A stretch of DNA of 63,218 nucleotides, filler included, from Candidatus Sysuiplasma jiujiangense (GCA_019721075.1; 10 parts of 10 records of this genome joined end to end with filler, not necessarily neighbours in it), one strand, 5' to 3'; shown: positions 5,293 to 52,950, counted from the first letter of the whole stretch. A program made the numbers and translations. The notes: a model not told the origin generated them from the letters alone.

Positions 5293-5603
5293 GACACTGC
5301 CCCCACTATAGGCAGGTCATGCACGACCATGCCGATTATCACCATTGCGGATAGAAACAGGGCAAGGAGTGTGATGAATACGGGCAGCGCAAAAGGCCCC
5401 ATGGAGAGGGATGCAGAGGCGAAACTGCCTATGACTCCGGATATTACTCCCTCAACCACTCCGAGGATGAGGTTGAACAGCTCCGCAAGATAATAGAGGG
5501 ACATGGCGAAAAAATACAGGATGATCTGTATGACGTTGTTAATGGCGTCCAGCGGATTGAGCCATGAGATCAGGGATGGCGGGCTCACCCCATAATATGA
5601 CAT
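5289..5603 (-). CDS. Small membrane protein (amphipathic helix plus C-terminal TM), putative virion protein
   Basis: 104 aa, hydrophobic; overlaps both neighbours; resembles the two upstream genes. Confidence 0.75.
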   Translation of the reverse strand: MSYYGVSPPSLISWLNPLDAINNVIQIILYFFAMSLYYLAELFNLILGVVEGVISGVIGSFASASLSMGPFALPVFITLLALFLSAMVIIGMVVHDLPIVGAVS

Positions 5604-5881
5604 TATTCACTCACCATATCTCTGACCGGAACCGTGAAGGAGAATACCAGGTACAGCCCGACGAGTGTCATGCCGAAGGATGCAACCACGATCGTCGGCG
5701 CAAGGATGCCGTAGTTCCCCTGCCACGCCTGGAACACGGAAACGAAATCCCCGGTCACTGACTGCAGGAGGGGCACTATCAGGGTGTATTCCAGGTCCGA
5801 AAGCACGGTCTGCAGGAACCTGTACATGACCTGCAGGAATCCCCAGAGGGGCGAGGACATTATGGAGGAGGATACGGACAT
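5603..5881 (-). CDS. Small membrane protein (amphipathic helix plus C-terminal TM), putative virion protein
   Basis: 92 aa; WGFLQV..YG..P..P.RD.V pattern shared with 5893-6270; GAGGT RBS. Confidence 0.75.
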   Translation of the reverse strand: MSVSSSIMSSPLWGFLQVMYRFLQTVLSDLEYTLIVPLLQSVTGDFVSVFQAWQGNYGILAPTIVVASFGMTLVGLYLVFSFTVPVRDMVSE

Positions 5882-5892
5882 CCATGCTTACC

Positions 5893-6270
5893 TCAGACAT
5901 CGTCCTCCATGCCCACAAGATCCCTCAACGGACCGACCAGTGCAAGGATCAGGAATCCCGCAAGCAGCGCAATGCCGATTCCGAGGATGAACATCAGCGG
6001 ACCGTATACTCCGTACCCGGCCAACGAAAAACCAAATCCCTGGAACATGATGTTGATCGAGTTTGCGAACCCGGAGAATATGCTTCCGAACATTGTACCC
6101 AGTCCGGTGAGTATGACCTGGAGGAAGCCCATCATTAATCCCCAGATGCTGTTGAAAATCGTTGTGCCCAGGGAACTCGTGGCCATCGGTATGAACATCA
6201 GGGAAAGGACAGAGATTTTAAGCCTTGCCTTTCTGATGTTTTTCACATGGAATATGAGTCGATTTAACAT
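5893..6270 (-). CDS. Small membrane protein (basic N-terminus, amphipathic helix, TM, acidic tail), putative virion protein
   Basis: Start moved to ATG 6270 (MLNRLIFH, 125 aa) behind GGAGGG RBS, directly after the upstream stop. Confidence 0.75.
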   Translation of the reverse strand: MLNRLIFHVKNIRKARLKISVLSLMFIPMATSSLGTTIFNSIWGLMMGFLQVILTGLGTMFGSIFSGFANSINIMFQGFGFSLAGYGVYGPLMFILGIGIALLAGFLILALVGPLRDLVGMEDDV

Positions 6271-6271
6271 C

Positions 6272-7501
6272 TCACTTCCCTCCCTTCTTCGCTGAATCCT
6301 GCCTGTCGAACACGCCGATGTCATACCATGGGGCCACGAGTATCGCTGCCACGAAGGTAAAGATTGTACCAATCAAATATCCGGTCTGCTCTGCACTGTA
6401 AGACCCGATGATTGTCGTAAGGCCTGTGTTGCCGTATGCATGTATGCTCATGGAAATTGACGTGACATTCGACTGTATGAGGACCATCAGGTAGGTGCTC
6501 TGGTTGCCGGTCAGGTATGACGGGCTTATGCTGAAATTTGCAATGGATAGGGTTTTCAGGCTCTCATATGCAAATGGCTGAAAGCTTGACACGTTGTACC
6601 CTGTGCCCAGGGAGACGTTCGCAGGATGTGCATCGGAAGTTGCTATGGAGATTTTGGAAACAGCGAAGTTGTTCAGTTCAGCCACTGTGAGATTGGTACG
6701 GACCCATACCTGGCTTGAGTATGTGGTGACATTGCCTATGGTAGACGATGGAAAGTCAAACGTGGCAGTGCCGTTCACCTGGCCAAATGGTATTGCCCCG
6801 GATGACCCATAAACGTATGATGTAATGGACTCGGATTGCAGAACCGGTGAGTTGTCGCTTCCCGCCACGAGGGCATGACCTACGCCGGCAGAGAGGAAGA
6901 TCATGAGGAAAACTGATATGAGTGCAATGAACAGCCCAAGGAATTTCCTTGCTGCCTTGCCCGTTCCAGATTCCTTGAAATTAAGGGATTTTACCTTTGA
7001 TCCCTTCTGCCCCATGTATCCCTTCCTGTCTGACCATGCCGCATCCCATATGGCAACGAGGCCAAATATCAGGATAGACACGAGATACAGGATCGCTGCC
7101 TCATTGCCATTGTAAGCCGGAACGAGAATGTACTGGGCAAAGCCGAACTCATAGCCCAGGAATCCTCCTATCAACCCTCCAATGAAAAAGCCAGCGAACG
7201 CCCTCCAGATGAGATCCAGGATGCTTTTCCCCGGAGGCGTCAGGGTCTCGATGACAGCCCACACGACGGCTCCGAATATGATTGCAGGCGCGATTATGCC
7301 GTCATTAAAAACCACGACGTGGCCGACTATGGTATACGTGGGTTTCGCCAGCAGGCCCACAAACAGCAGCAGCGTTGCCAGAAGCCCGACAACAAGCCCC
7401 CCTATGGGCCACTTCCCAACGTGCGTGGGTATACTTTTCTTCGTCTTTGCAGAACCTTTTGCCGTATTACCGGCGCTTGAACCCTTATTTTTCTTAGCCA
7501 T
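6272..7501 (-). CDS. Multi-pass membrane protein with ectodomain (4TM-TM-ectodomain-TM)
   Basis: Start moved to ATG 7501 (MAKKNKG) after GGAGG; ~6 TM segments; ectodomain motif TATFDFP..VWVRTNLTVAEL. Confidence 0.8.
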   Translation of the reverse strand: MAKKNKGSSAGNTAKGSAKTKKSIPTHVGKWPIGGLVVGLLATLLLFVGLLAKPTYTIVGHVVVFNDGIIAPAIIFGAVVWAVIETLTPPGKSILDLIWRAFAGFFIGGLIGGFLGYEFGFAQYILVPAYNGNEAAILYLVSILIFGLVAIWDAAWSDRKGYMGQKGSKVKSLNFKESGTGKAARKFLGLFIALISVFLMIFLSAGVGHALVAGSDNSPVLQSESITSYVYGSSGAIPFGQVNGTATFDFPSSTIGNVTTYSSQVWVRTNLTVAELNNFAVSKISIATSDAHPANVSLGTGYNVSSFQPFAYESLKTLSIANFSISPSYLTGNQSTYLMVLIQSNVTSISMSIHAYGNTGLTTIIGSYSAEQTGYLIGTIFTFVAAILVAPWYDIGVFDRQDSAKKGGK

Positions 7502-7505
7502 TTCC

Positions 7506-7528
7506 GCTTCCTCCCTTACGGAGGAAGC
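7506..7528 (-). promoter_or_regulatory. Hairpin sequestering the RBS of the 6272-7501 gene
   Basis: mRNA reads GCTTCCTCC-GTAAG-GGAGGAAGC: perfect 9-bp stem with GGAGG in the 3' arm, 4 nt before the ATG. Confidence 0.5.
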
Positions 7529-7564
7529 CAAGCCCGGACTTTACGGAGGAAATTTAGTGCTTGC

Positions 7565-15559: not shown

Positions 15560-15564
15560 TGTAA

Positions 15565-19926: not shown

Positions 19927-21090
19927 ATGAAAACAAACACAAGACTTTGGGTAATAATAATAGGCTTGCTTATTGTCTTCGCAGGTGCATTTGGTATCCT
20001 CGTCATTGGCGGGGAAGCTGCGCAGGCAAAAAGCAACGGCGGTTTGAACGTAGTAAAGGACTATAACGTTGGAAATGAGGTATCCGAGATTTGGGGCCTT
20101 AATACGACAGCGCACACATGGAAGCAGGCGACCCTTACGGGAGCAGGAACAGACGCCATAACGGCGACATTCCCCGTGAAGTTCACGGTCGACCGGGTCA
20201 TAATAATGACCGACAACTCATCGCAATCCGTGTATGATCTCTTGGTGAAGAGTGCGTATTATGAGTACACCGACCTGACAAGTTCCGGCGGAAAGATAAC
20301 GAACCTGTACCAGTATTTCGGCCAGTATGTCAACGACTCCGGCACGACCTCGATAAGCGACAAGGGCATAACAGGATATGCGTTGAACTTCTCGCTCTAC
20401 GGTCCGAGCACGGATCTCTTTGGCCATAACCCGGCTGTCAACCTTCTACAACTATTCGCATCTCCATGGTCCGGAACGGCACAGTACCAGCTGGAAGTCA
20501 ACTCATCCGTGAATGCAACAACGGCATTCAGCTTCACCTTCACCCAGTACTTCGAGTCATCAGTGAGCTTCAACCTCGTGGATCTCGTCAGCTATTTCAT
20601 GCTTGCCTTCCTCCTGCTGGGAACGCTCTTCCTGTGGTACGCCACGCCTGAGCACTACGGCGATGAGGAAGAAAGATCAGCAGCGAAGCAGGCCCGGAAC
20701 GAGCTTCCGCTTGCAATCATAATCGGTGCGGTAGGCCTGTTCATCTTCGCGGTCGTCGGTGAGATGGGAAACATATCTCCGCTCTTCGGCTATGGCGGTG
20801 CAACGATGGGCCTGCTCGTTGGAGGATTGCTCACATTCGCGTACACTGCAGTCGCCACAAGGCAGAAATACCACTATACGGCGTTCGTATTCCTGGTTGG
20901 CGAGGCTCTGGGCATACTCCTTAACATACTGGTGCCTGATGGAACAATCTACGCGAACTATGCCGCATCGGCGAACGTCCTTGGATCTCTCCTTGGATGG
21001 TACGTTGTGGTATTCGCGCTCTTCCTGACCGTCATCGGCGTGCTGAACACGAAGAGGTACAAGCTGCGTCCAAGAGAGCACAGGGAGTGA
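19927..21090 (+). CDS. Multi-pass membrane protein with ectodomain (TM-ectodomain-TM-4TM), putative major envelope protein
   Basis: 387 aa; near-identical to 40200-41363; same architecture and motifs as 51560-52729. Confidence 0.85.
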   Translation: MKTNTRLWVIIIGLLIVFAGAFGILVIGGEAAQAKSNGGLNVVKDYNVGNEVSEIWGLNTTAHTWKQATLTGAGTDAITATFPVKFTVDRVIIMTDNSSQSVYDLLVKSAYYEYTDLTSSGGKITNLYQYFGQYVNDSGTTSISDKGITGYALNFSLYGPSTDLFGHNPAVNLLQLFASPWSGTAQYQLEVNSSVNATTAFSFTFTQYFESSVSFNLVDLVSYFMLAFLLLGTLFLWYATPEHYGDEEERSAAKQARNELPLAIIIGAVGLFIFAVVGEMGNISPLFGYGGATMGLLVGGLLTFAYTAVATRQKYHYTAFVFLVGEALGILLNILVPDGTIYANYAASANVLGSLLGWYVVVFALFLTVIGVLNTKRYKLRPREHRE

Positions 21091-21095
21091 TCTGA

Positions 21096-21413
21096 TTGGC
21101 AGATGAGGAAGAGGAAGTATCTTCTGGCTTCGAGCTGACGACAGACGAGATTTTCATTCTCGTAGCCGTCGTGCTTGCGGCAGCTGTCTTCCTCGCCTTA
21201 TATCTGGACCAGCAGGCAGTTGCGGGAATCGGTGTCGGGATCGTCTCGGGTTTCGCATCCCCTATCACCGCGTTCTTCAACGGCATAGCGCAGGCAATAT
21301 CCGCGTTCTTCAACTGGATAAGCCATGCGCTGTCGAGCCTGTGGGTCCTGAAGGCCCGGTTGTATATGACCGTGCTTTCAACCAAAAAAATTTATCTTTT
21401 TGTCATGAGGTGA
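21096..21413 (+). CDS. Small membrane protein (acidic N-terminus, TM, amphipathic helix), putative virion protein
   Basis: TTG start after GGAGTGA; GIGVGIVSGF resembles GTIGLGFISAV in 50804-51184. Confidence 0.75.
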   Translation: MADEEEEVSSGFELTTDEIFILVAVVLAAAVFLALYLDQQAVAGIGVGIVSGFASPITAFFNGIAQAISAFFNWISHALSSLWVLKARLYMTVLSTKKIYLFVMR

Positions 21414-21417
21414 AAAT

Positions 21418-21705
21418 ATTTTAGCACCTAAGCCAAAGGGTTCTTCCGTTGCGGCGGAACTCATTCTTTATATTATCCTTGCAGTCATCATTATCGCAAT
21501 CGTATATGCCATCGTCTTTGACTCGTCGGCACTCGGCCCGGTTGGCATTGGAGTCGCAGGATCCTTCGGCTCGATATTCTCGTCATTTGCCAATGGCATC
21601 TCGACCGTGATAGAAGGCATTGTCCATGCAATCGTCAATGCTATAACGGGCGCCCTGAGTTCAACCGGCTCTTACCTTTACAAGCACACGATAGGAGCGC
21701 TCTGA
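21418..21705 (+). CDS. Small membrane protein paralogous to 21096-21413; no canonical start (absent from ORF track)
   Basis: Open frame (I)LAPKPKGSSVAAELILYIILAVIIIAIVYAIVFDSSALGPVGIGVAGSFGSIF...HTIGAL*; GAGGTGA RBS at 21407-21413; TGATG overlap with the next gene. Confidence 0.75.
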   Translation: MLAPKPKGSSVAAELILYIILAVIIIAIVYAIVFDSSALGPVGIGVAGSFGSIFSSFANGISTVIEGIVHAIVNAITGALSSTGSYLYKHTIGAL

Positions 21706-21932
21706 TGCGCCCGATATCATTCCTCATAGGCCTCTTCCTTCTCCTCTTCATCGGCTATGAGCTGCTCACGGGAAACAGGATTCAGGAGATCATGTTTCTC
21801 GCTGTCGCAGGAAATTTCATATCGGCAGGCTACTTCAAGGTGAGCACCACCTATACGATCCTCTTCTTCGTTCTGCTCATTTTCGCAACGTTTTCTCTCC
21901 TCTACGGACTCGGATCAAGTGATGAAAAGTGA
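21705..21932 (+). CDS. Small two-TM protein
   Basis: 75 aa; aligns by eye with 50569-50799. Confidence 0.75.
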   Translation: MRPISFLIGLFLLLFIGYELLTGNRIQEIMFLAVAGNFISAGYFKVSTTYTILFFVLLIFATFSLLYGLGSSDEK

Positions 21933-22072
21933 AGAAGTCTGAGCACCGTGAGGAGGAACGCAGGCGGGCCANNNNNNNNNNNNNNNNNNNNNNNNNNNNN
22001 NNNNNNNNNNNNNNNTTAATTAATTAANNNNNNNNNNNNNNNNNNNNNNNNNNNNNNNNNNNNNNNNNNNNG

Positions 22073-23134
22073 ATAACGGAACAGGCCATAAACAGCACGA
22101 ACCATGGCATAATCCTGAACCCCATCAGCCAGCCGGGGAATTTGATACCGGGGCAGAATGCAACATGGCTTCTGGATCCGGAATTCAGGAACGGAACTCT
22201 CCTGACGCCATCGCAGATACAGAATTCAACCTTCCAGTTCATCATAACAAATTCATCGGGTTTCTTCCTGCCAGAAATCATCAACCACACAGTGGATCAG
22301 GGATACCTCAGGGTTACATTTTTGCCAACAGTCAACGGGTCGATGACGTTCGCCATGAAGGAAACGTTCGGCAACAACTCAGGGTCCTATTCTTATCAGG
22401 TAAATGTTATCCCGATCACACCAGTTTCGGTAGGCCTCCAGGAAAGTGTCAGCGTTCCATCAGTAATCCAGGTCAATAATGCCACCGTCGGGACCATCAC
22501 GTTCTCGCTCATTTCCGGTGGGTCTGTGGGTCTTGCGCCGACGTCCTCCCAGACGGATGCCCTGATAGCCAATACGTCGGTGGAGCTCCTGTACCATGGA
22601 TCATTCGCCGCAGTCATACTGCCGTACTATGACGGGGCGGGAGTGGCGGCATTCTCCGTGAATATCTCCTCAGTGGGAACCGGATACTCGATCCTGGTCA
22701 TAACCCATTCCACCAATATCTCGGGGCAGGCAGTCCGCTTCACAGGTACATCCCAGGAATTCACTGTCTCCACACAGTCGCCGTCAAACCCGCCCCAGCC
22801 CATAACGAGCCTGAGCATCGAGAAATTCCTCACCAGCCCTGCGGCAATCGCCCTGGAATTCATTGCCACCATCATAGGCCTCCTGGCATGGCTCGTCCCC
22901 AAGGCGGACGCAAAGAAGGAGAAGGAGAAGGAGGACCTGAACCAGGCTGAGATAGTGGTTGAGGGCGGCATCGCACTGAAGATCCTGGGCGGCATTCCCC
23001 TCTCGACGCCCGAACAGGCATGGTGGAATGCAATTCCTGAGGATACCCGGAAAGGCTTGATGAGGGAGGGGACGGCAGGCAAGAGGACCCTGTTCCCCAA
23101 ACCAAAGATAAAGGCAGAAAAGAAGGTTGATTGA
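22073..23134 (+). CDS. C-terminal part of a large membrane-anchored surface protein (5' truncated)
   Basis: Frame open from the contig start; beta-rich and sequon-rich; TM followed by a charged cytoplasmic tail. Confidence 0.8.
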   Translation: MTEQAINSTNHGIILNPISQPGNLIPGQNATWLLDPEFRNGTLLTPSQIQNSTFQFIITNSSGFFLPEIINHTVDQGYLRVTFLPTVNGSMTFAMKETFGNNSGSYSYQVNVIPITPVSVGLQESVSVPSVIQVNNATVGTITFSLISGGSVGLAPTSSQTDALIANTSVELLYHGSFAAVILPYYDGAGVAAFSVNISSVGTGYSILVITHSTNISGQAVRFTGTSQEFTVSTQSPSNPPQPITSLSIEKFLTSPAAIALEFIATIIGLLAWLVPKADAKKEKEKEDLNQAEIVVEGGIALKILGGIPLSTPEQAWWNAIPEDTRKGLMREGTAGKRTLFPKPKIKAEKKVD

Positions 23135-23806
23135 ATGAGAAAAAGCATGAAAATATTTGGATTGGCCATTGTGATAGCATTCGTGTCGGCCGCAGCTGCG
23201 GCAATGACGGCTCATACGGGAGTGGAGACGGGACCGGCAGCAGTCCAGGCAATGCCTGATGTGGCAGGGAACCTGACTAACGGTACGGACCCGGCATACT
23301 CGGAGATAAACATGTACATCTTCGCCGAGGATCCGGGCCTGCAGCTGTACATCACTGCGGAGCCCGGAGTGGTGGCGCCCATGCTCACGACCTTTTCCGC
23401 GACGCTGCATGCCCCCGGGAACAGTTCATGGTATGTCACGGACAGCGCCCTCAACGGGGGAAGCACCGTGCTCGACAGCGGGACATTCTCATACGTCACG
23501 ACGATCACGCTCCAGGGCACGAACTCCGGAGTTGCCAACTTTACTTTCCACATCACCTCCGGATCCCTTGGCCATGCCATGGCATTCTCATACCTCCTGG
23601 AGTTCATGTCTCCCACCACGTATATCAGCTACGAGCACCAGAAGACCGTGGCTCCGGGGGAGCTGACGTATGGGCAGGGAGGTGAGATAGCCGCGGGAGG
23701 CATAGTTCTGGGCCTTGGCCTCCTGAGGCTCTTCCTGCCGGTGATGCGCAGGAAGATACAGAAGGACAACAAGAAAGAGGGGATGGTGCTGCTTGCCTCA
23801 AACTGA
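23135..23806 (+). CDS. Signal peptide, ectodomain and C-terminal TM protein
   Basis: 223 aa; homologous to 49921-50568 (LEFMSPTTYISY vs IQVVTLTQYINY before the TM and basic tail). Confidence 0.8.
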   Translation: MRKSMKIFGLAIVIAFVSAAAAAMTAHTGVETGPAAVQAMPDVAGNLTNGTDPAYSEINMYIFAEDPGLQLYITAEPGVVAPMLTTFSATLHAPGNSSWYVTDSALNGGSTVLDSGTFSYVTTITLQGTNSGVANFTFHITSGSLGHAMAFSYLLEFMSPTTYISYEHQKTVAPGELTYGQGGEIAAGGIVLGLGLLRLFLPVMRRKIQKDNKKEGMVLLASN

Positions 23807-25016
23807 GGACGAGAAGAACGAGCAGATGAACCCGGACGAGGGAGGGCCTTTCCGCCTGGGAAAGCTCATAGGCACAAATAAAAGGGAAGTCACGCCGGAT
23901 GCCACCAAGCTCACGATAGTCAACATTGAGGACACAGCCGGATACGGCGCAAGATTCAGGGACTGGTTCCTGCGGAACAACGGGCCGGCGACCCTTCTCA
24001 TAATGCTGGTCGTGATCATATCCTACGTCGTCCCCTCAGAGTATTTTCCCCAGGCGACGGAGCTGGTGTTCGGGATGGTCCTCATGGCCATAGTGCTCGC
24101 CCTCATCTCCGCATACGAATATGAGAGGAGGCAGGACAGGCACCACAACATCTTCGTGGACCAGATCAGGATCAAGCTGAAGGAGACGGTTGTGGCAAGG
24201 GAGAAGACCAAGGAGGGTGGCGTGGAGACCAAGGTGATAGTCCCCAAGATCACGGAACGGAGGATCTACCTGGCGAAGGACTACATGTTCGAGGGAAAGA
24301 AAGGCGACCCGTACAGGATAGAGAAGTACAACTGCCAGATTGTGGGGGAGTTCGGGAAGATCATCGACGTTTCATACGTGGACGAGACCGGAAGGATACT
24401 GATCGGAGAAGGGGAAGGCGACATCCCCTCAGGCCTCATAGTCAAGATAGCATACCCGTCAAGGACGGAGCTGTCAGAGGAAGTGAAGAAGGCCGAGAAG
24501 CTCAGGAAGGAGGGCGGCATCCCGGAGAAGGAGTTCCTTGAGTTCAAGGGGGCGGTGGACCAGTACAACCTGTGGAGGGATCAGGTCATAGAGAAGGCCA
24601 CCAAGCATGGGATCTCCATGATTGACATCGATGCGATGAACAGGAAGCAGAGATCATTCTTCGTTGCCCTTGCGAAGGACTCCGTCAGCTACTGGCGGGG
24701 AGAGGCGCAGGACCCGGTTTCGCTCCAGGAGTACAAACAAATGGATCCGTCCATCCTGATGCCGAAGCTCCTCAATATCATCAGGGATCAAAACGACTAC
24801 AGGGCAGACAAGCTGGACTACATGATCAACAGGGAATCCGATAAGATAGAGGCAGAGATCGGGGCCACGTTCAACATCGCAAGGATGGATGGCCGCAGCA
24901 AGGAGGCGGTTGAGCAGTTCCTGGTTGAGCAGAGAAAGGCCCTCGTGTCAGTCCAGAGCAAGACCGAAAAGGAAATGGAGGAAGAGGTAAATGGCCGAGG
25001 AGAAGACACAGAATAA
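23793..25016 (+). CDS. Two-TM protein with large charged cytoplasmic domain
   Basis: 407 aa; same position and architecture as 48706-49878. Confidence 0.8.
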   Translation: MPQTEDEKNEQMNPDEGGPFRLGKLIGTNKREVTPDATKLTIVNIEDTAGYGARFRDWFLRNNGPATLLIMLVVIISYVVPSEYFPQATELVFGMVLMAIVLALISAYEYERRQDRHHNIFVDQIRIKLKETVVAREKTKEGGVETKVIVPKITERRIYLAKDYMFEGKKGDPYRIEKYNCQIVGEFGKIIDVSYVDETGRILIGEGEGDIPSGLIVKIAYPSRTELSEEVKKAEKLRKEGGIPEKEFLEFKGAVDQYNLWRDQVIEKATKHGISMIDIDAMNRKQRSFFVALAKDSVSYWRGEAQDPVSLQEYKQMDPSILMPKLLNIIRDQNDYRADKLDYMINRESDKIEAEIGATFNIARMDGRSKEAVEQFLVEQRKALVSVQSKTEKEMEEEVNGRGEDTE

Positions 25017-25437
25017 GGCACCCCCGTCACTGGTCCCCGAGGTGAAGAGGAAGATCATGGCCATCCTGGTTGGATCGGGCATGGATCCCGCTTTGGTGGA
25101 TATCATAAGCGTCATGGACCCATTCAAGATCCAGCTGTTCATAGGCCTGTACCAGGCATACTCGAGCATGCCTGACTACGTCCGGAAGAGGGCAGAGGAG
25201 ATCCTCAACATTGACATGGCCGATCCGCACATCAAGAAGCTCCTTGAGGATGATGTCAACAGGGGAGCGTGGGACAGGGAAAAATACCTGGACTGGGCAT
25301 CCGGATTCTACCGGAAGGTTCTGGTCATGAGGTTCGTTAAGACTGCAATGCATGAGTACATGAACACCCTCGCATCCTCCCAGGAGAGGGCGAGTTTAAT
25401 CCTGACCACTCAGCCGGATAAGGTGAGGATAGCATGA
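24991..25437 (+). CDS. Hypothetical protein
   Basis: 148 aa; GAGGT RBS; overlaps both neighbours. Confidence 0.7.
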   Translation: MAEEKTQNKAPPSLVPEVKRKIMAILVGSGMDPALVDIISVMDPFKIQLFIGLYQAYSSMPDYVRKRAEEILNIDMADPHIKKLLEDDVNRGAWDREKYLDWASGFYRKVLVMRFVKTAMHEYMNTLASSQERASLILTTQPDKVRIA

Positions 25438-25847
25438 TTCCTGGCGACCAGTTCATCGACCCGAACCAGCAGGAGGCACTGCGAAGAAGGGCTGCCTGTT
25501 TCGACTTCATGGTCGAGAACGCCAGGAGGGGATCCGGTATCCATGTCTGGGACGCCCAGGTCCTTGCGACCCTGGTATCCATCCTGTACAGATCGCTTCC
25601 GGTGAAGAATACGTCCCCCCGGGAGATAGGCGAGAGATTTGAGGAGGACTGGTATGCATACCGGCGCAGGGTCGACGACCTCTCCACAGACGGGAAGATA
25701 AGCAGGGACGAGTATGCCTTCAGGGTGTGGTCCGAGACCGCAGATTTCATAGAACGATGCACGACATTCATGAATGACACGCTCTTCGTCCGCCTCGAGA
25801 AGAGGAAGAAGGAGCCCACGGTGGGGGCGGCCTATGAGCCAAAGTGA
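25434..25847 (+). CDS. Hypothetical protein
   Basis: 137 aa; ATGA coupling; GGTGAGG RBS. Confidence 0.7.
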   Translation: MIPGDQFIDPNQQEALRRRAACFDFMVENARRGSGIHVWDAQVLATLVSILYRSLPVKNTSPREIGERFEEDWYAYRRRVDDLSTDGKISRDEYAFRVWSETADFIERCTTFMNDTLFVRLEKRKKEPTVGAAYEPK

Positions 25848-26718
25848 TGACTACGTCCTCCCCGGCTTCATGACCCTGGACAGGGCGGGGGAAGGTGGCC
25901 ACAATGCGATCCTGATGGGGGCTCCGGGGCAGGGAAAAACTTCCATCCTGCAGTACCTTTCCACCCTGGCAGTCCAGGGCAGGGACGTCTACGGCAATAG
26001 GAGGGAACCTCAGGCCGGGATATGGAGGGCAAGGCGCCATGACAAGTATCTCGAGTTCTTCGCCCTTGGAATAGGCAAGCTGATGCTCCCTGCAGGATCG
26101 TCATACACCCTGCAGAAGATCTATGCCGGAAACAGGATCGAGGAGATATCCGTCGACGACCTGGAGGATGCGGGGCTCGAGTATGCATTTTACGGCAGCC
26201 CGCAGGACGTGGTCGATAGCCTGGAGGTCGGGAAGATCCTCTGCATACTCTTTCCAGGCACAAGCATAGAGGAGACCAAATTTTACGCAGAGCTCTTCCA
26301 GGCCCTGGTCAACCGGAAGTCCCAGGAATGGGTGCACATGGCCATTGACGAGGCGGGGGACATCCTGGCGCCATACAATACGGATTCATACCGGATTCAG
26401 AAGCTCTTCATCGATTCGGTGGCTGATTTCAGGAAAACGGGCATCAACTCGGAATTCTCCTGCCATTCCTATACGGACCTGGACTACAGGATCCTCCCGA
26501 AACTGCCGTACCACATCTACAAGAGGGGAGCGAAGAGGATGCCCGCAGAGACCAAGAAGCTGAAGCAGGAGACAATCAACAGGACGGAGATCAGTGAGGC
26601 CTGGTTCACCACCGGGCCATTTTTCGACAAGCTGATTTTCCCGGAGATGAAGACCGAGGCGAAGCTGGACTTCAAGCTGCAGACCGTATCGAGGACCATG
26701 ACGGTGGAGACGGAATGA
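25834..26718 (+). CDS. P-loop ATPase, FtsK/HerA-superfamily-like (putative packaging or extrusion ATPase)
   Basis: Start moved to ATG 25834; Walker A GAPGQGKT, Walker B HMAIDE, downstream FRKTG arginine-finger-like motif. Confidence 0.8.
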   Translation: MSQSDDYVLPGFMTLDRAGEGGHNAILMGAPGQGKTSILQYLSTLAVQGRDVYGNRREPQAGIWRARRHDKYLEFFALGIGKLMLPAGSSYTLQKIYAGNRIEEISVDDLEDAGLEYAFYGSPQDVVDSLEVGKILCILFPGTSIEETKFYAELFQALVNRKSQEWVHMAIDEAGDILAPYNTDSYRIQKLFIDSVADFRKTGINSEFSCHSYTDLDYRILPKLPYHIYKRGAKRMPAETKKLKQETINRTEISEAWFTTGPFFDKLIFPEMKTEAKLDFKLQTVSRTMTVETE

Positions 26719-27347
26719 TCTACGCCCTTTATGCCCGTGTCAGCCACGACGACAACGTCCAGGATCCGGAAGTGCAGCTTGAGCCTATGAGGGAATACCT
26801 GAGGAAGAAGAGCATCAGCTGGAGGGAATACATAGATCTCGAGACGGGCAGGACCATCGAGAGGGAAGGATACCGGAAGGCCATGGCAGAGATCGAGGAA
26901 TGGGACACGTTCATGGTGTTCCTCCCCGACCGGCTGACAAGGGAGGGCCCGGAGAGAGGCATAACCGAGGTGACGAGGATCCTCGACGAAGGGAAGGCAT
27001 TCCAGATCTTCATGGGCGGCATCATTATCCAGGACAGGATGACCGCAATAACCCGAATGACACTCAGGACCTTGTTCACGATGGCAGCCTTTGAATCTGA
27101 CATCATTTCCGAGCGTACACGGGCGGGCCTCGACAAGCAGAGGGCGACCATAAGGGAACAGGGCTATACAATCAGCAAGAGGTCCGGGAAAAGGATCGTA
27201 GGACTGGGAAGAAGCCCCACAGTCAGCATAAAAATAGAGGATATCCTCCGGCTGAGGGACCAGGGCAAGTCGCTGTCGCAGATTGCAGCCGAGCTGGGCA
27301 GCAAGAAGTCAACCATTCACTCTATTTTGAAACGATCCTTCCGCTGA
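26715..27347 (+). CDS. Small serine recombinase (resolvase/invertase) with C-terminal HTH
   Basis: YARVS, Q, DRLTR, AAFESDIISERTRAGL, GR, GKSLSQIAAELG. Confidence 0.92.
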   Translation: MIYALYARVSHDDNVQDPEVQLEPMREYLRKKSISWREYIDLETGRTIEREGYRKAMAEIEEWDTFMVFLPDRLTREGPERGITEVTRILDEGKAFQIFMGGIIIQDRMTAITRMTLRTLFTMAAFESDIISERTRAGLDKQRATIREQGYTISKRSGKRIVGLGRSPTVSIKIEDILRLRDQGKSLSQIAAELGSKKSTIHSILKRSFR

Positions 27348-35812: not shown

Positions 35813-35817
35813 TATAA

Positions 35818-36597
35818 ATGGGCGAAGGCATCCTTGATGAACTGCAACCACATCTCTCCGAGTTGTTTCGGAGATTGAAGCACATAGGCATTGCCTTCGT
35901 CATCGTTCTTTTAACAGTGTTCATGTTCAATCCACTGAAACTCACATTCGGTCTCACAGGTTCATTCACGGTTTATGCGTTCAACCTTATCTCAAAGAAT
36001 ATCGGAGGTGTGAAGATCATAACGATCTCGCCTTTTGAGGCACTTTTCACTGATCTCTTTCTCGGTGTTGTGATATCCATCATGATATTGCTTCCTTATA
36101 TTCTCTATAATACCATCGCATTTATTCTTCCTGGGATGTCAAAAAGGGAGAAGCGTCTCTTGAAGATATCTCTTATACCAGGAACCATCATGTTCATTGT
36201 TGGAATGTCGTTCGCATGGTATCTCCTGATACCGCTGATGTTCCATTTTACAGCAATTCTGGATCCGGCAATGGGCGTTCAGCCGACTGTATCTGCACAG
36301 AAGCTGATCGGTCTCCTGCTGACAATCATATTTTCACTTGGTCTCGTGTTTGAGATGCCACTGATAATTTCTGCACTCGTTTATCTCGGCATTGTAGATG
36401 TTCAGTTTCTCAGGGCAAAATGGAGATACGCAGTTGCAGGCTCATTCATAGCTGCATGGATAATATCACCGGGTGCAACTGGTGGCTTGATCGAGACGGC
36501 AATGGGATTGATATTTTCAGGCTTGTACTTTTCCGGTATATATCTCGGAAAGTTCATGGAAGTAAGAAAAAGGAGTTATGTGTATGTGGAAGCATAA
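35818..36597 (+). CDS. tatC: Twin-arginine translocase subunit TatC
   Basis: Same length and motifs as 15565-16344. Confidence 0.93.
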   Translation: MGEGILDELQPHLSELFRRLKHIGIAFVIVLLTVFMFNPLKLTFGLTGSFTVYAFNLISKNIGGVKIITISPFEALFTDLFLGVVISIMILLPYILYNTIAFILPGMSKREKRLLKISLIPGTIMFIVGMSFAWYLLIPLMFHFTAILDPAMGVQPTVSAQKLIGLLLTIIFSLGLVFEMPLIISALVYLGIVDVQFLRAKWRYAVAGSFIAAWIISPGATGGLIETAMGLIFSGLYFSGIYLGKFMEVRKRSYVYVEA

Positions 36598-47483: not shown

Positions 47484-48722
47484 CAACTCCTTGTCGGGTA
47501 TCATCTGGAACTCTATTCCGGCGGTTTCCGCAACGTCAGAAATCATCTGCATGAAATCAATATCGATTTCGAGCGGGATGGTAACATCACGTTCTGTCTC
47601 ATAGAAAGAGAAAGGCAAGTCAGAAGCCGCTTCGGTCAGAACTTTTTCCTCTATTTTCTCAGTTCCATTATACCGCTGAACCTTCATATAGTGCTGCACG
47701 CCGTCTTTGTAGGTCGTCATTACACAGGTTTTTTTGTTTTCCAGCTCAGGATCCTCTTTGTCTGCTCCGAGTTCAACCCGTGCGATGGAAAATTTCCTTG
47801 CATATTGCTGCAATGCGGATGAAAACCTTGAGGCTATGGTTCCTGTTCTATTTGACTCGGCTGTGCTCTTTCCCATTTCATCGGCTACCAGGGTAATGGA
47901 AGCGGAGAAATTTTCTTCCGTTTTTCGGACATCGTCCCGCCAGACCATGAACTCAAAAATCGATGGTGCTGCTCTTTGGGTGAAGAGGTCGGAGAGTTTT
48001 GTTATGTGGTAAATATGCAGAAAATCATCACGGTTTACAGGCAGAGTCGTATATATCCAGTTGCGGAAATCAACAGCGATTTTCATAATTTGTTTTGCGA
48101 GTGTTGATTTTCCTGTTCCCTGCAATCCTTTTATGTATGCATCTGAGTAAAAAGAACCGCCGGACTGTACCAGAAATTCCCTGTATGTCCACGTGGAAAA
48201 GGTTAATGTGGGTGCAGATCGTTCCTGGCCTGTAATCGAAAACCTCGCATAAGCCTCTGGAAATCCCTCAAGTACTCTTTTGTCCATCATGGCGGATGCA
48301 AGCTGCGCGGGTTGCCTGTATGTTATTTCCTGCATTTCCCGTATTGCAGGCATGATCACTTTGTCGATAAACAACTTGTAAAGATTTTCATTTTTCAGGA
48401 TTTCGAGAAGTTCGGTTTCCATTTCCTCAGGGGTCTTGAAATACTTGTTTCCATTGGCTTTGTCTTTATGTATGGGGTCTATGTAAAAAATGGAATCTGG
48501 CGGCATTTCTGTGCACCTGCGGGTTCCGACATTGCGGATAAAGGCTTTGATAACACTTGGTTGCCAGTACCTGTACCACAGGTCAAGCTTCTGGGCTGAT
48601 CCGGCAATTACGGGATGCAAAGTCAGGGAACCGGAAGGCAAGCCTCCGCCATCGTAATGCCTGTTCCCGAGTATGGCGATGCTCTTGTATTCGTCTATAT
48701 CCTTTTTATCGTTCCCTGACAT
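47484..48722 (-). CDS. P-loop ATPase (FtsK/HerA/Zot-like) with long N-terminal extension (3' truncated)
   Basis: Walker A GLQGTGKS, IYTTLP, Walker B ITLVADE, YARKF. Confidence 0.8.
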
Positions 48723-49878
48723 TTATTAACCCCTTTTTGTCCGGTGGCTGTGAAGCCATTTCTGCAGGCTTTCTGAGAAAAGCTTCAAGCTCTCTCAACT
48801 GGTCCGCACCTATGGTGAGTTTTCCTGCAAACACGCTGATAAATTCCGTGAATGCGTTGTTGTATACCCATGGCAACGCAGATTCGAGTGCCAACCCCGT
48901 TATAATCGTGCGAGCCGCTTGGTCTGCGACACTTGAAAGATTGGAAGCGGTGAACAGAGAAGGGTCTTTCATTCTCTCCAACCGTTTTATATTGTGGTAA
49001 TCCTCTGCAAGTGCCACGCCTATGACAAATCTTTTAGTGTATTTCCCGAAATTCTCAAGATTCAGGTATATGGGAGAGTGTTTCAGGCGTTCCACTTCAT
49101 CCGATGCCTCGGTGAGCAGTTCCACACCAAGCTGGAATTTCCTGTTGATTTCCAAAATCTCTTTATGTTCCGGCAGTCCCGTATTCTTCTTTTCCAGCTT
49201 CTTAATGAACTTATCCCATTTTTTTGAGATTTTGGCGAACTTTTCAGATACCGCTTTAACCAGAATGAGCGATGCAAGCCCGGGAATGGGATCGCCTTGC
49301 ACATACCATTTGTGGGGCCTCACTGCACCGATATATGCTGATCTCTTGGTGTTTCTGTCCGTTTCCCGCAGGCATTGCACTAACTGAACCCCTTTGTATG
49401 ATTCGTCATATTTGTTTCCCGTCTTTATGAGCGATTCGGGATAATCCCATATTGATATCGATGTATGCTCTGCCCTCATGTCGTCATATTGTATCTGCTC
49501 GTCCTCGTCATGCGGGTCTATCTTTACGCCTCTTGTGATACGGTGTCCCTCAACCTCAAATACCGCTATGCGTGCCTTGTCTTTCCGTTCCAGCAGGAAT
49601 ACAATAACACAAGCAAAAAATAAACCAATTGTAATTAGTGCCAAAATTACCTGTTCCGTAGTATTGACATTCTTGGCATTTTCCCCCGTGTAGATCAGGA
49701 AGAAAATAAACCCTACGAATAACAGGAACGTTTTCCATCCACCGTTTTTAAGCCCTGTGTAGAAGTCATGCCAGGCTTCGCCCAGTGTCCCCGTAATAGT
49801 TATGTTTACTTTTTCCTCCTTGGTCTTGGTTTTCCGCTCTACGAGTTCCACGGGCACTTGTGAAGCTGAGTCAGTCAT
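48706..49878 (-). CDS. Two-TM protein with large cytoplasmic domain
   Basis: 390 aa; counterpart of 23793-25016. Confidence 0.8.
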   Translation of the reverse strand: MTDSASQVPVELVERKTKTKEEKVNITITGTLGEAWHDFYTGLKNGGWKTFLLFVGFIFFLIYTGENAKNVNTTEQVILALITIGLFFACVIVFLLERKDKARIAVFEVEGHRITRGVKIDPHDEDEQIQYDDMRAEHTSISIWDYPESLIKTGNKYDESYKGVQLVQCLRETDRNTKRSAYIGAVRPHKWYVQGDPIPGLASLILVKAVSEKFAKISKKWDKFIKKLEKKNTGLPEHKEILEINRKFQLGVELLTEASDEVERLKHSPIYLNLENFGKYTKRFVIGVALAEDYHNIKRLERMKDPSLFTASNLSSVADQAARTIITGLALESALPWVYNNAFTEFISVFAGKLTIGADQLRELEAFLRKPAEMASQPPDKKGLINVRER

Positions 49879-49920
49879 TTGTACCGCCTTCCGTTTTTCT
49901 GGACATATGAAGATGTTTCA

Positions 49921-50568
49921 TTATTTCATCCTCTCCGTTTCCTTTTCATAGGGATCATCCTCCATGGGCAATCCCTGCTTGCGTTTCCATGCCCTGTAAA
50001 ATCCTCTGATAGGCTTTACCGTAAGGACAATGGTTATTCCAAGTATCAATCCGCCTACCATGATTTCTTCCCATGGCGGCAGCGGATTGGTAACGATCAC
50101 CGTGCCTTTCTTTGCATTGGCGTAATTGATGTACTGCGTTAATGTTACAACTTGGATGGAAAATATCTCAGTCCTTGATTTTCCGATCACCGATGAGGAT
50201 ATGGTAACTATGAGATCATAAGACCCTGTTGGCAAAGTTGTATTAAAGACATCGGAGACATAAGAACCACCGGAGTGATTCCCGAAGCTTGCAGACAGCA
50301 ATATTGCATTGCCGTTTGAAACCTGTATTGTGGAATTGCCTCTTGACTGCACATACATAGATACAAACTGAGGCAGTACAGAAGTAAAATTGGCATAGGG
50401 ATAGGCGAAACCGAAGCCTGAATATGCAGGGCCAGCAGGAACCTTATCGGGATTTCCAGCTATATAAGCACTCATCCCGTATTCAGGCCCACTAGCCGCA
50501 TGTGAAACTGGAATTGCCAATCCGCCAACAATCAGGATCCCGAATACGATTAACCATGCTGATTTCAC
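49921..50568 (-). CDS. Signal peptide, ectodomain and C-terminal TM protein
   Basis: 215 aa; counterpart of 23135-23806. Confidence 0.8.
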   Translation of the reverse strand: MKSAWLIVFGILIVGGLAIPVSHAASGPEYGMSAYIAGNPDKVPAGPAYSGFGFAYPYANFTSVLPQFVSMYVQSRGNSTIQVSNGNAILLSASFGNHSGGSYVSDVFNTTLPTGSYDLIVTISSSVIGKSRTEIFSIQVVTLTQYINYANAKKGTVIVTNPLPPWEEIMVGGLILGITIVLTVKPIRGFYRAWKRKQGLPMEDDPYEKETERMK

Positions 50569-50799
50569 TCAATCACCCGCCATGAGACCATAGACCATTA
50601 CCATAGCAGCAATTATAAAGGCAACGATTGTAATCATTGACGCCAATGCCGCGGTATTCGAGTAATTGAAAAATGTCGCTATTGAAATTACCGTTCCCTC
50701 AAACAAGCCTGGTTCGGTGTACTGGAAGAACCCGCTGATATAAGCCCAGAAGAAATATACCAGTAAGCCTAATCCCGCTAGAAAAATAAAGAATTTCAG
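50569..50799 (-). CDS. Small two-TM protein, probable CTG start (absent from ORF track)
   Basis: (L)KFFIFLAGLGLLVYFFWAYISGFFQY..GTVISIATFFNYSNT..VYGLMAGD*; fills the gap exactly and aligns with 21705-21932. Confidence 0.75.
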   Translation of the reverse strand: MKFFIFLAGLGLLVYFFWAYISGFFQYTEPGLFEGTVISIATFFNYSNTAALASMITIVAFIIAAMVMVYGLMAGD

Positions 50800-50803
50800 A
50801 AGC

Positions 50804-51184
50804 TCACGCCCCTGAGATCTGCATGTAAATTATATGAGGGGCAATGTACAGGGATGTAAGCCATTTCCAGAAGTTCTGGAATGCATTTGATAGGCCGGTT
50901 CCTCCTGATGTCGCAGCCGAGGTTAAGCCTGTTCCAATAGTCGTAAACGCACCATTTATGAGATTTGTAAAGCCTGTGGTTATGGCTCCGCCTATGGCAT
51001 AAACAGCATTGGTCATGACTGTCGGAATTGAGGAAAAAAACCCTACAACTGCGGATATGAAACCTAATCCTATGGTTCCGATCTGGCTTCTGAACAGAAT
51101 AAAAGCGATTACGACCGATGCAACAAGAATTATAATCATGGCGGGGAACAGCAGGGATGTTGCCGCTGCCGTATCATTTGCCAT
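50804..51184 (-). CDS. Small TM plus long amphipathic helix protein, putative virion protein
   Basis: 126 aa; resembles 21096-21413 and 21418-21705. Confidence 0.75.
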   Translation of the reverse strand: MANDTAAATSLLFPAMIIILVASVVIAFILFRSQIGTIGLGFISAVVGFFSSIPTVMTNAVYAIGGAITTGFTNLINGAFTTIGTGLTSAATSGGTGLSNAFQNFWKWLTSLYIAPHIIYMQISGA

Positions 51185-51206
51185 GAGCTTTCTTTTCAGA
51201 AAATCC

Positions 51207-51407
51207 CTAATCGTATTTCCTCTCCCCCTTGTTTCTTTTCTTCCGGTAAGTTCTTGGCTTTGTATTAGGAGATTTGCCGTTAAATCCCCAGCCGTGTGAG
51301 GGCCTCATACGTTTGCCCTCTCTCTGGTCCGGGCTCATGTTTTTCCATTTTTTTGAGCCTTTGAGAGCATTCTTCCGGTCTGCCTTTCTCTGTTTTGCAG
51401 AGGTCAT
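51207..51407 (-). CDS. Small very basic protein, putative nucleic-acid-binding virion protein
   Basis: 66 aa, K/R-rich; ATGA-coupled to the upstream gene. Confidence 0.7.
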   Translation of the reverse strand: MTSAKQRKADRKNALKGSKKWKNMSPDQREGKRMRPSHGWGFNGKSPNTKPRTYRKKRNKGERKYD

Positions 51408-51532
51408 TTGTATCGCCTCTTTTCCTTTTTCTTGCGTTTGACTCTGCCAAGGTACTTTACTATTACCCTGTATCTTCTGCCGTCTTTATTAACTGTCTGT
51501 ATGACAGTTGATCCCTTTTCCGGTTCTACCAT
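51404..51532 (-). CDS. 42-aa basic protein (MVEPEKGSTVIQTVNKDGRRYRVIVKYLGRVKRKKKEKRRYK)
   Basis: GGTGA RBS; ATGA overlap with the next gene; below the ORF-track size cut-off. Confidence 0.65.
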   Translation of the reverse strand: MVEPEKGSTVIQTVNKDGRRYRVIVKYLGRVKRKKKEKRRYK

Positions 51533-51559
51533 TTCAATCACCTAAAAAAAAGGGTGGGG

Positions 51560-52729
51560 TTAGAATAATCCCGTGCTCTCGTTGAACTTGCTGTGCTTTA
51601 GTGCTGCAAATCCGCCTGCGATAAGGATTACCGAGAACAGTAAAACCAATCCGGCTACGATCTGCCCTGCGAAGCTGTACCCGGATATTGCCGCCACTGG
51701 TGAAAGGAACGGAAATACGGAACTTGCTATCACAGCGATTATTAGGCCAACAACGCCAGCAAGGAACTGGTATCCAAGGTCCCCTTTATTTTCCTGCATG
51801 CCGTATATGTATACGCCAGCCGCAAAGCCGAGGAACGCGACATACGGTAAGCCGGATGAAACGAAAGGCAGAGAAGCCCCTCCAAACAGCACTATGGCAT
51901 ATATCAGACCGCCTGCTACCAATCCCAGGACTGCACCGGACACTTCCCTCTTCTTGAGAGTGTACTCAGCGGAACCGCTCAGTCTCGGGAATGATATAGC
52001 TGCAAGGAATATGATGAGCACGCCAGCAAGTACGCCTATGTACGAATAATTGTCAAGCAGGTTGAGCTTGAATGGGTACTGTGCGTAGGATGTTACAGTG
52101 AGTGAACCGCTGCCAGTTACTTTAGCTCCTGTTGCGTTTTTATTGCCAACTGAAAGGTGCATCACATACATGACTTCGTTGTTCAGCCCTGCCATGCTGT
52201 TGAACAGATTAAATGGCTCGGATGTGTTCAGGTTATTGACAGTGCTTGAATATAGAGTTACATTATTTGTAACGTCAGTTACAGCCTTATCTCCGAATGC
52301 ATTATTGCTTGTTGAGTTGTGGAAGGTTCCCAGCATGAAGTATGCCGATGAGAGATTCACCGCTCCAGCAGTACCGGATGTGGCACTTCCCTTGATATTC
52401 GTTGTAAAGAAAAACAATGCCTGTTCCAGCAAATGCTGCACGTTCAAAGATGAATTGCCCGATGCAAGTATGATTTCAGTTGTTCCATACGGTATTGTTA
52501 TTGTTGCTACATGGCTAGTGCTCCAACTCACTGTCAATATATTCCAGTCTGACCCGTTCCAGGCTTCGCCGACATGATACATGCTCTGAAAATATGTATC
52601 TCCGCTAAGTCCAGAACTTGAATTTATGTTTGCTCCCTCTGACTGCACTACGGCAAAATAGCCGTAGGAAAAGATTACAGCGATGAGGATCGCAATTACC
52701 CCTAAAATTGTTCGATTCCTATGTTCCAA
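51560..52729 (-). CDS. Multi-pass membrane protein with ectodomain (TM-ectodomain-TM-4TM)
   Basis: TTG at 52729 after GGAGGT; aligns with 19927-21090 (SSLNVQHLL vs SSQSVYDLL; FGDKAVT vs ISDKGIT; FNLF vs VNLL). Confidence 0.85.
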   Translation of the reverse strand: MEHRNRTILGVIAILIAVIFSYGYFAVVQSEGANINSSSGLSGDTYFQSMYHVGEAWNGSDWNILTVSWSTSHVATITIPYGTTEIILASGNSSLNVQHLLEQALFFFTTNIKGSATSGTAGAVNLSSAYFMLGTFHNSTSNNAFGDKAVTDVTNNVTLYSSTVNNLNTSEPFNLFNSMAGLNNEVMYVMHLSVGNKNATGAKVTGSGSLTVTSYAQYPFKLNLLDNYSYIGVLAGVLIIFLAAISFPRLSGSAEYTLKKREVSGAVLGLVAGGLIYAIVLFGGASLPFVSSGLPYVAFLGFAAGVYIYGMQENKGDLGYQFLAGVVGLIIAVIASSVFPFLSPVAAISGYSFAGQIVAGLVLLFSVILIAGGFAALKHSKFNESTGLF

Positions 52730-52950
52730 ATAGATAACCTCCAAGGTTATTTATTCAAAAACCCGAATGTGGTATTTAAAACATTATGTGAAAAATAAGA
52801 AGTTGGATATATATATATCTATCTCAACTTTAAGATTAAATTAAATTCGTNNNNNNNNNNNNNNNNNNNNNNNNNNNNNNNNNNNNNNNNNNNNTTAATT
52901 AATTAANNNNNNNNNNNNNNNNNNNNNNNNNNNNNNNNNNNNNNNNNNNN

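Follow-up and report, generated by a model that had tools for sequence, protein, structure and literature searches.

A conserved membrane-protein and ATPase module of a mobile genetic element in an acid-mine Thermoplasmata archaeon

The DNA analysed here (the window, 63 kb) is not one molecule, but consists of 10 small contigs, joined by N spacers, of the 55-contig, 2.29 Mb metagenome-assembled genome (MAG) of Candidatus Sysuiplasma jiujiangense (G000; completeness 97%, contamination 1.8%). Contig 8 of the window (positions 47484-52850; C36 in the numbering of the assembly; 5,367 nt; guanine-plus-cytosine (GC) content 0.448) carries a tightly packed series of open reading frames (ORFs), all on the minus strand, of which six out of nine encode membrane proteins and two encode very basic proteins. 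Its genes form the conserved module, made up of membrane proteins and an ATPase, of a mobile genetic element from an acid-mine Thermoplasmata archaeon; with the assembly contig C20 included, this element measures at least 21 kb. The following genes were found on contig 8 (coordinates of the window; TM, transmembrane; aa, amino acids; pI, isoelectric point):

51560..52744, minus strand: A8, hallmark protein of 394 aa with N-terminal TM segment, ectodomain at about 46-226 and C-terminal membrane bundle of four to five helices
51404..51541, minus strand: B8a, 45 aa, basic, pI 10.6, an uncertain gene
51207..51407, minus strand: B8b, 66 aa with 23 lysine and arginine residues, pI 11.4
50804..51184, minus strand: C8, 126 aa, hydrophobic; TM segment(s) at the N-terminus, tail rich in Gly, Thr and Ala
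about 50569..50802, minus strand: D8, small hydrophobic ORF of about 72-77 aa with two hydrophobic segments (2-TM)
49921..50568, minus strand: E8, type-I membrane protein of 215 aa with signal-like N-terminus, ectodomain with four sequons, TM helix at 166-187 and short basic tail
48706..49878, minus strand: F8, 390 aa with TM helices at 46-68 and 73-100 and a charged cytoplasmic domain of about 290 aa
47484..48722, minus strand: G8, N-terminal 413 aa of an ATPase of about 660 aa with Walker A motif, cut by the contig end

All ORFs named for this contig in the initial annotation were thus recovered, with corrections in two details. D8 is present, but its full-length 2-TM form comprises no ATG, GTG or TTG start, the sole canonical start being a TTG at 50706, which leads to 45 aa with one TM helix; G8 is likewise present, but incomplete on the contig. 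Searches against Pfam, PHROGs and NCBIfam gave no family for the seven non-ATPase proteins of contig 8, and for G8 AAA matches below threshold and nothing else.

A8 comprises hydrophobic segments at 9-35 and four long ones between 229 and 385, and nine of its 11 N-x-S/T sequons lie within the ectodomain of about 190 aa. Homologues are the A proteins of contigs 3 and 6 and of the assembly contigs C14 and C44 (phmmer 1e-16; hhalign probability 99.2 over 336 columns), and a phmmer search of all ORFs of the MAG placed A-type genes on C36, C25, C44, C29, C33 and C14. The family comprises 11 clusters among 5.8 billion. An AlphaFold2 (AF2) model, calculated from an alignment of 15 sequences and of moderate confidence (predicted local distance difference test, pLDDT, 65.8), showed a TM helix, a beta-sandwich at 57-222 and five helices. 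The nearest folds of the sandwich were carbohydrate-binding modules (CBMs) and surface glycan-binding proteins (Z 8.5, root-mean-square deviation 3.3 A, 128 residues), and in BFVD the model matched tail-fibre and CBM-type domains with E of about 1e-3. Since Z values of about 8 are common with the comparison tool, this likeness is taken only as a lead, according to which the ectodomain of the A proteins may be a CBM- or lectin-like beta-sandwich. In the Protein Atlas, A8 gave nothing usable. The A-type gene of C25 (1061-2292) is split over two frames, either by a frameshift or by an assembly error; the same contig encodes a giant surface protein (more than 991 aa), a 2-TM protein of 436 aa that resembles F and, in the ATPase position, an orphan of 490 aa.

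The ATPase G8 has a homologue of 663 aa with 92% identity and belongs to a small family (two clusters in a word-index search, 12 representatives among 1.84 billion), which comprises a helical N-terminal domain, a RecA-like core with Walker A and B motifs and two C-terminal CPxC zinc ribbons. Its AF2 model (pLDDT 70.9) was nearest to RecA, KaiC and RadA among PDB folds (Foldseek) and to DnaB-like helicases in BFVD, while the G8 profile gave only P-loop-level matches to PDB sequences (best E 0.023); against phages and plasmids there was no tblastn match, and no PHROG matched. The missing C-terminus is encoded at the start of C20 and matches the full-length homologue at residues 483-564 with 83% identity; the reading frame is also carried on by a loose end in a public run. 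On C20 (15.6 kb, GC 0.437), a serine recombinase gene adjoins the ATPase end, and the gene for a surface protein (more than 1,033 aa) runs off the far end; the contig further encodes an EarA-like regulator, a primase-like P-loop protein, a restriction-endonuclease-like protein and two DNA methyltransferases. Since G8 continues on C20, the element formed by C36 and C20 comprises at least 21 kb. No overlaps were found between the ends of C36 and C20, and a 30-nt loose end past position 52848 in one public run had no match in the MAG assembly. Altogether, the join of C36 to C20 across the ATPase gene is supported, and the order from the end of C20 back to C36, and hence circularity, is a guess.

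For contigs 3, 4 and 1 (C29, C31 and C27), gene series parallel to that of contig 8 had been proposed. They comprise the following features, in which PAV1 denotes Pyrococcus abyssi virus 1:

19927..21932, plus strand: contig-3 half, type I; A3 19927-21090, C3 21096-21413, D3 21705-21932
22072..27347, plus strand: contig-4 half, type I; C-terminal part of X, a giant surface protein (to 23134), E4 23135-23806, F4 23793-25016
24991..27347, plus strand: contig-4 half, continued; h 24991-25437, i 25434-25847, ATPase G4 (PAV1-ORF375-type) 25774-26718, serine recombinase 26715-27347
37..7531, minus strand: contig-1 series, type III; A1 6272-7531 (five TM helices, ectodomain, TM helix), C1 5893-6372, D1 5603-5881
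37..5603, minus strand: contig-1 series, continued; 4-TM protein 5289-5603, 1751-aa PKD-repeat surface protein 37-5292

The split series on contigs 3 and 4 is present as claimed, and its A and E proteins are homologous to those of contig 8, E8 being related to E4 and to the E proteins of C14 and of the genome G335 (hhalign probability 94.1 over 167 columns; phmmer 2.7e-4). The C, D and F proteins correspond by position and topology only. C8 occupies the same position as C3 and the C protein of C14, but the hhalign probability of 13 does not demonstrate homology; for D8 and D3 (75 aa) hhalign gave no sequence support; and for F8 and F4 homology was likewise not demonstrated (BLASTP E 0.008; hhalign probability 0.9-7.9). 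The relatives of F8 are two clusters in 5.8 billion, namely F8 itself and a 97% variant, and a weak language-model lead (Protein Atlas, 0.78) points to a cluster labelled Saleviricota. The F8 gene lies directly upstream of the G8 gene and overlaps it. A near-identical copy of the contig-3 half lies on contig 6, with its A gene at about 40200-41363. Just upstream of the membrane module, contig 3 carries a gene pair for proteins of 73 aa (TatA-like) and 259 aa (TatC-like) at 15338-16344, with the contig-6 copy at about 35591-36597; the chromosomal Tat pair is distant, on C4 (TatC 6e-33), and the contig-3/6 pair may be an element-borne Tat translocase.

On contig 1, a permuted version of the series had been placed at 5289-7501. 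Four membrane ORFs were indeed found at 5289-7531, but without detectable sequence homology: a relationship of the contig-1 series to contig 8 or to type I was rejected at the sequence level (hhalign probability of at most 22), and the likeness lies in the architecture alone. Contig-1-type genes were found by phmmer on C27, C17 and C19. On the latter two contigs, type III comprises a giant PKD adhesin, a protein with signal peptide, ectodomain and TM helix, a 2-TM protein with cytoplasmic domain and a zinc-ribbon ATPase, whose zinc-ribbon region matches the contig-8 ATPase family (probability 96).

The complete order was determined on C14 (23 kb), which encodes a 980-aa adhesin, A, C, a 73-aa protein, D, X (1,595 aa), E, F, two small proteins and the ATPase, and in addition two tyrosine integrases, a Holliday-junction-resolvase-like protein and winged helix-turn-helix (wHTH) regulators. 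Two different proteins of C14 (17044-17940 and 18878-19861) have their last 20 residues in common, which points to a recent duplication or recombination inside this element. In the complete Thermoplasmata genome G335, the full order lies inside an island of about 25.3 kb with a 13-bp direct repeat at both ends, one copy of which is the 3' end of tRNA-Asp beside a tyrosine integrase. G372 shows the full order again, and the order is also kept on C31. The serine recombinase lies 3' of the ATPase gene, and F adjoins the ATPase or sits a few genes upstream. The assignment of contigs 3 (or 6) and 4 to one element type is borne out by the complete order on C14 and in G335.

Further genomes are connected via the backbone. 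G296 has integrase, resolvase-like, wHTH and ATPase genes in common with C14, while its membrane proteins differ; G147 contains a decayed remnant of an element; and a basic backbone protein with a common N-terminal motif joins G372, C14 and C17/C19. The genes of this basic-protein family lie in tandem copies at 5182-6590 of C17 and at 3304-5414 of C19, and further at 3724-4620 of C33 in G372 and at 601-915 of C14. Since the types are linked by backbone genes, the proposal of three divergent members of one lineage is reasonable as a network: divergent forms do recur in the MAG, but the proposal does not hold as homology gene by gene. The element is one of a loosely connected and almost unannotated set of integrative elements in which the order is lectin-like A, small hydrophobic C and D, (giant adhesin X), type-I E, bitopic F, ATPase and serine recombinase.

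Within contig 8, the stretch 51213-51673, which covers the basic-protein genes and includes B8a, is hypervariable between strains. One public run contained two variants together (depth 71 vs 7.9) with 64 differences in 461 nt, and another run contained a form with a deletion of 133 nt (51242-51376) in the B8b region. Since 21 of the 29 strain differences listed at 51243-51363 in the public-run comparison are at third codon positions of B8b, this gene looks coding, and its product is a candidate DNA-binding or condensing protein.

The element contigs showed a GC content of 0.44-0.45, compared to about 0.50 in the large contigs of the MAG. Neither the A protein nor the contig-8 ATPase was found in nine other genomes of the order, including three of the genus, and among 400 other sampled genomes of the class the A family was found in G335 only (top four candidates per genome scored). 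The ORF375-type ATPase gave convincing matches in G335, G372, G147, G182, G296, G061 and G176. At the same time, contig 8 was present in near-identical form (at least half of the sampled words) in 19 public runs from eight studies of mine tailings, mine drainage and sediment, in the assemblies of which contigs extend past both of its ends. The order of the module is conserved across elements whose replication and integration genes differ. Searches of further collections gave little: among JGI metagenome contigs no relative with flanking DNA was found with two query sequences, and among GTDB genome contigs one query retrieved a single 3.1 kb fragment of a Thermoplasmata MAG. Altogether, the recombinase and primase-like genes of C20, the low GC content, the absence from the nine genomes of the order, the island in G335 and the integrases of C14 make it highly probable that the element is mobile.

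It could be objected that ordinary chromosomal DNA, for example a cell-surface or pilus-like cluster, only looks mobile in a fragmented assembly, as the contigs of the MAG concerned are small and binning cannot prove linkage. Against this explanation stand the nine genomes without the module, the occurrence of the A family in one of 400 class genomes, there in an integrase-bounded tRNA island, the linked recombinase, primase-like and methyltransferase genes, and searches of Pfam and NCBIfam in which no pilus or archaellum family was found. The chromosomal explanation is therefore very improbable and already close to refuted. This also speaks against the alternative named in the initial annotation, that the module is chromosomal DNA fixed across the host genus: it is absent from all three genomes of the genus and lies on integrase- or recombinase-bearing elements. 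The other alternative named there, a known conjugation, Ced or pilus system, found no match either, since 29 module proteins searched against NCBIfam and Pfam gave no VirB4/TrbE, VirD4/TraG, HerA-like CedB, CedA or archaellum family.

As to the function of the module, we consider it probable that it forms a particle or a transfer apparatus. One viral comparison is PAV1, assigned to the candidate family 'Osirisviridae' in a preprint (PMC12934983), according to which PAV1-like spindle-shaped viruses comprise two TM-anchored lectin-domain proteins in their core. Similar to the elements described here, PAV1 shows small membrane proteins, TM-anchored lectin-domain giants and, ahead of the ORF375 ATPase, two small proteins, with ORF137 in this stretch. 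The type-I ATPase of contig 4, C14 and G335 is homologous to ORF375 (phmmer 4.5e-15; phrog_22963 8e-24 to 9e-26; tblastn), whereas no other PAV1 protein matches and the contig-8 ATPase has only the P-loop region in common with it. The A proteins gave no phmmer match to ORF676 and ORF678 of PAV1; the modelled A ectodomain resembles carbohydrate-binding sandwiches, at a Z (8.5) of the common level. A second comparison is the layout of the pleolipovirus HRPV-1 (VP3 2-TM, VP4 signal peptide-TM, ORF5 2-TM, ORF6 signal peptide-TM, ORF7 N-terminal TM, VP8 NTPase of about 340 aa), from which contig 8 differs in the size of E8 (215 aa vs about 520 aa for VP4) and in the lack of similarity beyond the P-loop. 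VP8 reached a probability of 51 over 105 columns with the contig-8 ATPase family and of 34 over 65 columns with the ORF375-type, both around the P-loop. The pleolipovirus-like proviruses of Methanomassiliicoccales and Archaeoglobi are reported as non-lytic and integrase-bearing (PMC10919331).

The layout similar to PAV1 and HRPV-1, the basic proteins and 2-TM proteins of capsid size, and the lack of matches to conjugation families count as points for a virus. The best explanation at present is that the module belongs to a mobile element and builds the virion of an undescribed virus group, an explanation which we prefer although we rate it at somewhat less than an even chance; the chance that the elements are true viruses, taken by itself, is put at about the same.

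A number of observations weigh against this explanation. No capsid or fusogen hallmark was identified, and as the initial annotation had stated, no HK97 or jelly-roll capsid, terminase or portal was found for contig 8, C20 and C14 in Pfam, PHROGs and NCBIfam; its terms 'virus', 'enveloped' and 'budding' were inferences that went beyond these data. It had suggested profile searches against Pleolipoviridae, among others, as a check; the comparison of profiles with structural proteins of HRPV-1 and PAV1 gave nothing. VP3, VP4, ORF6 and ORF7 of HRPV-1 showed no profile similarity to module proteins (probability of at most 2.1): VP4 reached at most 0.4 with the E families, calculated from a single reference sequence and sequence profiles only, and VP3 at most 2.1 with the C and D families, short hydrophobic proteins being poor profile targets. 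The PAV1 capsid protein ORF121 had no phmmer match at E up to 1; its best hhalign result was a probability of 24.9 over 23 columns with the contig-1 4-TM protein, with values below 1 for C8 and D8, and the small hydrophobic C and D proteins as well as E and F showed no profile similarity to the neighbours of ORF121. Between G8 and the ORF375-type family the match (hhalign probability 87, 56 columns) lies at Walker A only, and full-length homology was not found. Moreover, the type-I ATPase is no closer to ORF375 than to its plasmid counterparts in pTN2, pP12-1 and pIRI48 (among them tn2-8p and p12-10p), and ORF375 itself lies in a block ORF137-375-898 that is common to PAV1 and these non-viral plasmids; Soler et al. 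2010 (PMC2926602) called the family viral/plasmid-specific. The ORF375-type ATPase therefore marks a mobile element and not a virion. Homology between contig 8 and type I by hhalign is limited to A and E, and four query sequences retrieved no relative from IMG/VR. Finally, an architecture like this is described for the pT26-2 plasmids, which are not known to form virions (PMC2926602, PMC6972569).

The immunity record of the host gave no support either. The only array of clustered regularly interspaced short palindromic repeats (CRISPR) detected in the MAG lies at about 10,890-12,010 of C1 and comprises 16 repeats of 36 nt and 15 spacers. Against all assembly contigs, the 15 spacers showed only chance matches of 13-17 nt and none to any element, so that the spacer check proposed in the initial annotation turned out negative and likewise weighs against a virus. 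Outside the window, C24 of the MAG (10.9 kb, GC 0.378) encodes a small Walker-A ATPase and three small paralogues, each with a TM anchor at the C-terminus, and one of its proteins is related (1e-12) to a 591-aa beta-rich protein of contigs 3 and 6; C24 is possibly a different virus. At the start of contig 9 (52899-53720), a tyrosine-recombinase gene cut by the contig edge is followed by small ORFs typical of mobile elements, and one of these elements may have its integration end on this contig.

The initial annotation had compared the module with viruses and had not considered the pT26-2 plasmids as an analogue; the one virus link found, the type-I ATPase to ORF375 of PAV1, is also common to pTN2. 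PMC2926602 and PMC6972569 describe the pT26-2 family as integrative plasmids of 17-38 kb with a conserved block of 12 genes, nine of them with TM helices; the seven core genes are t26-5p, 6p, 7p, 11p, 13p, 14p and 15p. The plasmids have carbohydrate-binding domains, a serine recombinase and an integrase, and the gene directly upstream of their ATPase encodes a TM/coiled-coil protein. A novel system for the transfer of DNA or protein is proposed by the authors, who liken it to pR1SE; virions are not known, and the choice between a plasmid transfer system and a viral remnant is left undecided. By description, the family with its integrated copies TKV2, TKV3 and MMPV1 resembles the present elements in size (about 20-38 kb), integration, syntenic core of mostly TM proteins, large surface proteins with carbohydrate-binding-type domains and orphan character of the core. 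The vesicle-transferred plasmid pR1SE of Halorubrum lacusprofundi, named as organisationally similar in PMC6972569, is by description alike in having many genes for membrane proteins found in transfer vesicles. The layout of contig 8 comes as close to the pT26-2 family as to pleolipoviruses or PAV1.

Based on this comparison, the elements could be non-viral integrative plasmids whose module serves to transfer DNA (or protein) and corresponds, in Thermoplasmata, to the pT26-2 core or to vesicle-transferred plasmids such as pR1SE. Adhesins would mediate contact between cells or between vesicle and cell, while F and the ATPase would pump DNA across the membrane. The published architecture of pT26-2 fits this explanation, as do the position of F, either adjacent to the ATPase or a few genes before it, with the serine recombinase following, the type-I ATPase family common to pTN2-type plasmids and the lack of a capsid hallmark; in addition, the 980-aa surface protein of C14 showed a weak match to CarboxypepD_reg, a domain also noted for t26-5p in PMC2926602. 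However, the likeness to pT26-2 is one of published architecture, and according to PMC6972569 the family is restricted to Thermococcales and Methanococcales, that is to another host class, with core proteins lacking similarity outside the family. The pT26-2 ATPase is reported there as HerA/VirB4-like, in contrast to the RecA-like ATPase with C-terminal zinc ribbons of contig 8, the model of which is nearest to RecA, KaiC and DnaB, and the very basic small proteins together with the small 2-TM proteins are equally in keeping with a packaged particle. A plasmid is thus a serious possibility, to which we give a chance clearly below even.

The module could also be accessory cargo, comprising surface and adhesion proteins with a chaperoning ATPase that alter the host surface, with effects on attachment, on life in biofilms or on the exclusion of other elements. 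The modules are dominated by glycosylated surface proteins, giant ones with PKD repeats among them, contigs 3 and 6 have their own TatA/TatC pair beside the module, and according to PMC6972569 integrated core modules of the pT26-2 family may benefit the host. Nevertheless, the module is the sole part with conserved order across elements with different replication and integration genes, which is the behaviour of an element's own core function, and an ATPase with DNA-binding-type zinc ribbons together with basic proteins fits the handling of DNA. Cargo is therefore regarded as unlikely.

Returning to the preferred explanation, the module would build a membrane-bounded particle that exports the DNA of the element from the cell, without lysing it, and delivers it to a new host. 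A, E and the giant surface proteins would recognise glycans of the recipient and be glycosylated themselves, C and D could be abundant small hydrophobic shell or matrix proteins, and the basic proteins would condense the DNA. F may hold the zinc-ribbon ATPase at the membrane, where the latter would load or translocate DNA. The particle would then be the virion of a non-lytic, membrane-containing archaeal virus of pleomorphic or spindle shape, and the elements its proviruses or episomes.

The general kind, an archaeal integrative element with a core of orphan membrane proteins and an ATPase, is already known, while this lineage, its proteins and its host group appear to be undescribed in the literature searched. 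To our knowledge, very few mobile elements and no isolated viruses of acid-mine Thermoplasmata have been characterised. No paper on such a module in Thermoplasmata was found in a literature search that did not extend to the methanogen-virus compendium of Medvedeva et al. 2023.

A more far-reaching proposal, which as a whole we hold to be possible but doubtful, is that the elements are genuine viruses and found a new virus family, non-lytic and membrane-containing, with acidophilic Thermoplasmata as hosts. Their virion would be composed of giant adhesins, a polytopic glycoprotein of lectin-like type and small 2-TM proteins, and would be loaded by a zinc-ribbon RecA-like ATPase. If true, the group would be an evolutionary bridge between PAV1-type spindle viruses, pTN2/pT26-2-type plasmids and pleolipovirus-like proviruses, and at least three deeply divergent lineages would coexist as a swarm in one host population.

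Independent of this proposal, the data define a coherent, almost wholly unannotated group of elements that is abundant in one host population. They add a third archaeal lineage to the question raised by pT26-2, PAV1/pTN2 and pR1SE, namely whether such modules are virion machinery, vesicle-transfer machinery or a new secretion system, and A, E and the ATPase provide handles for particle proteomics and for tracing transitions between plasmids and viruses.

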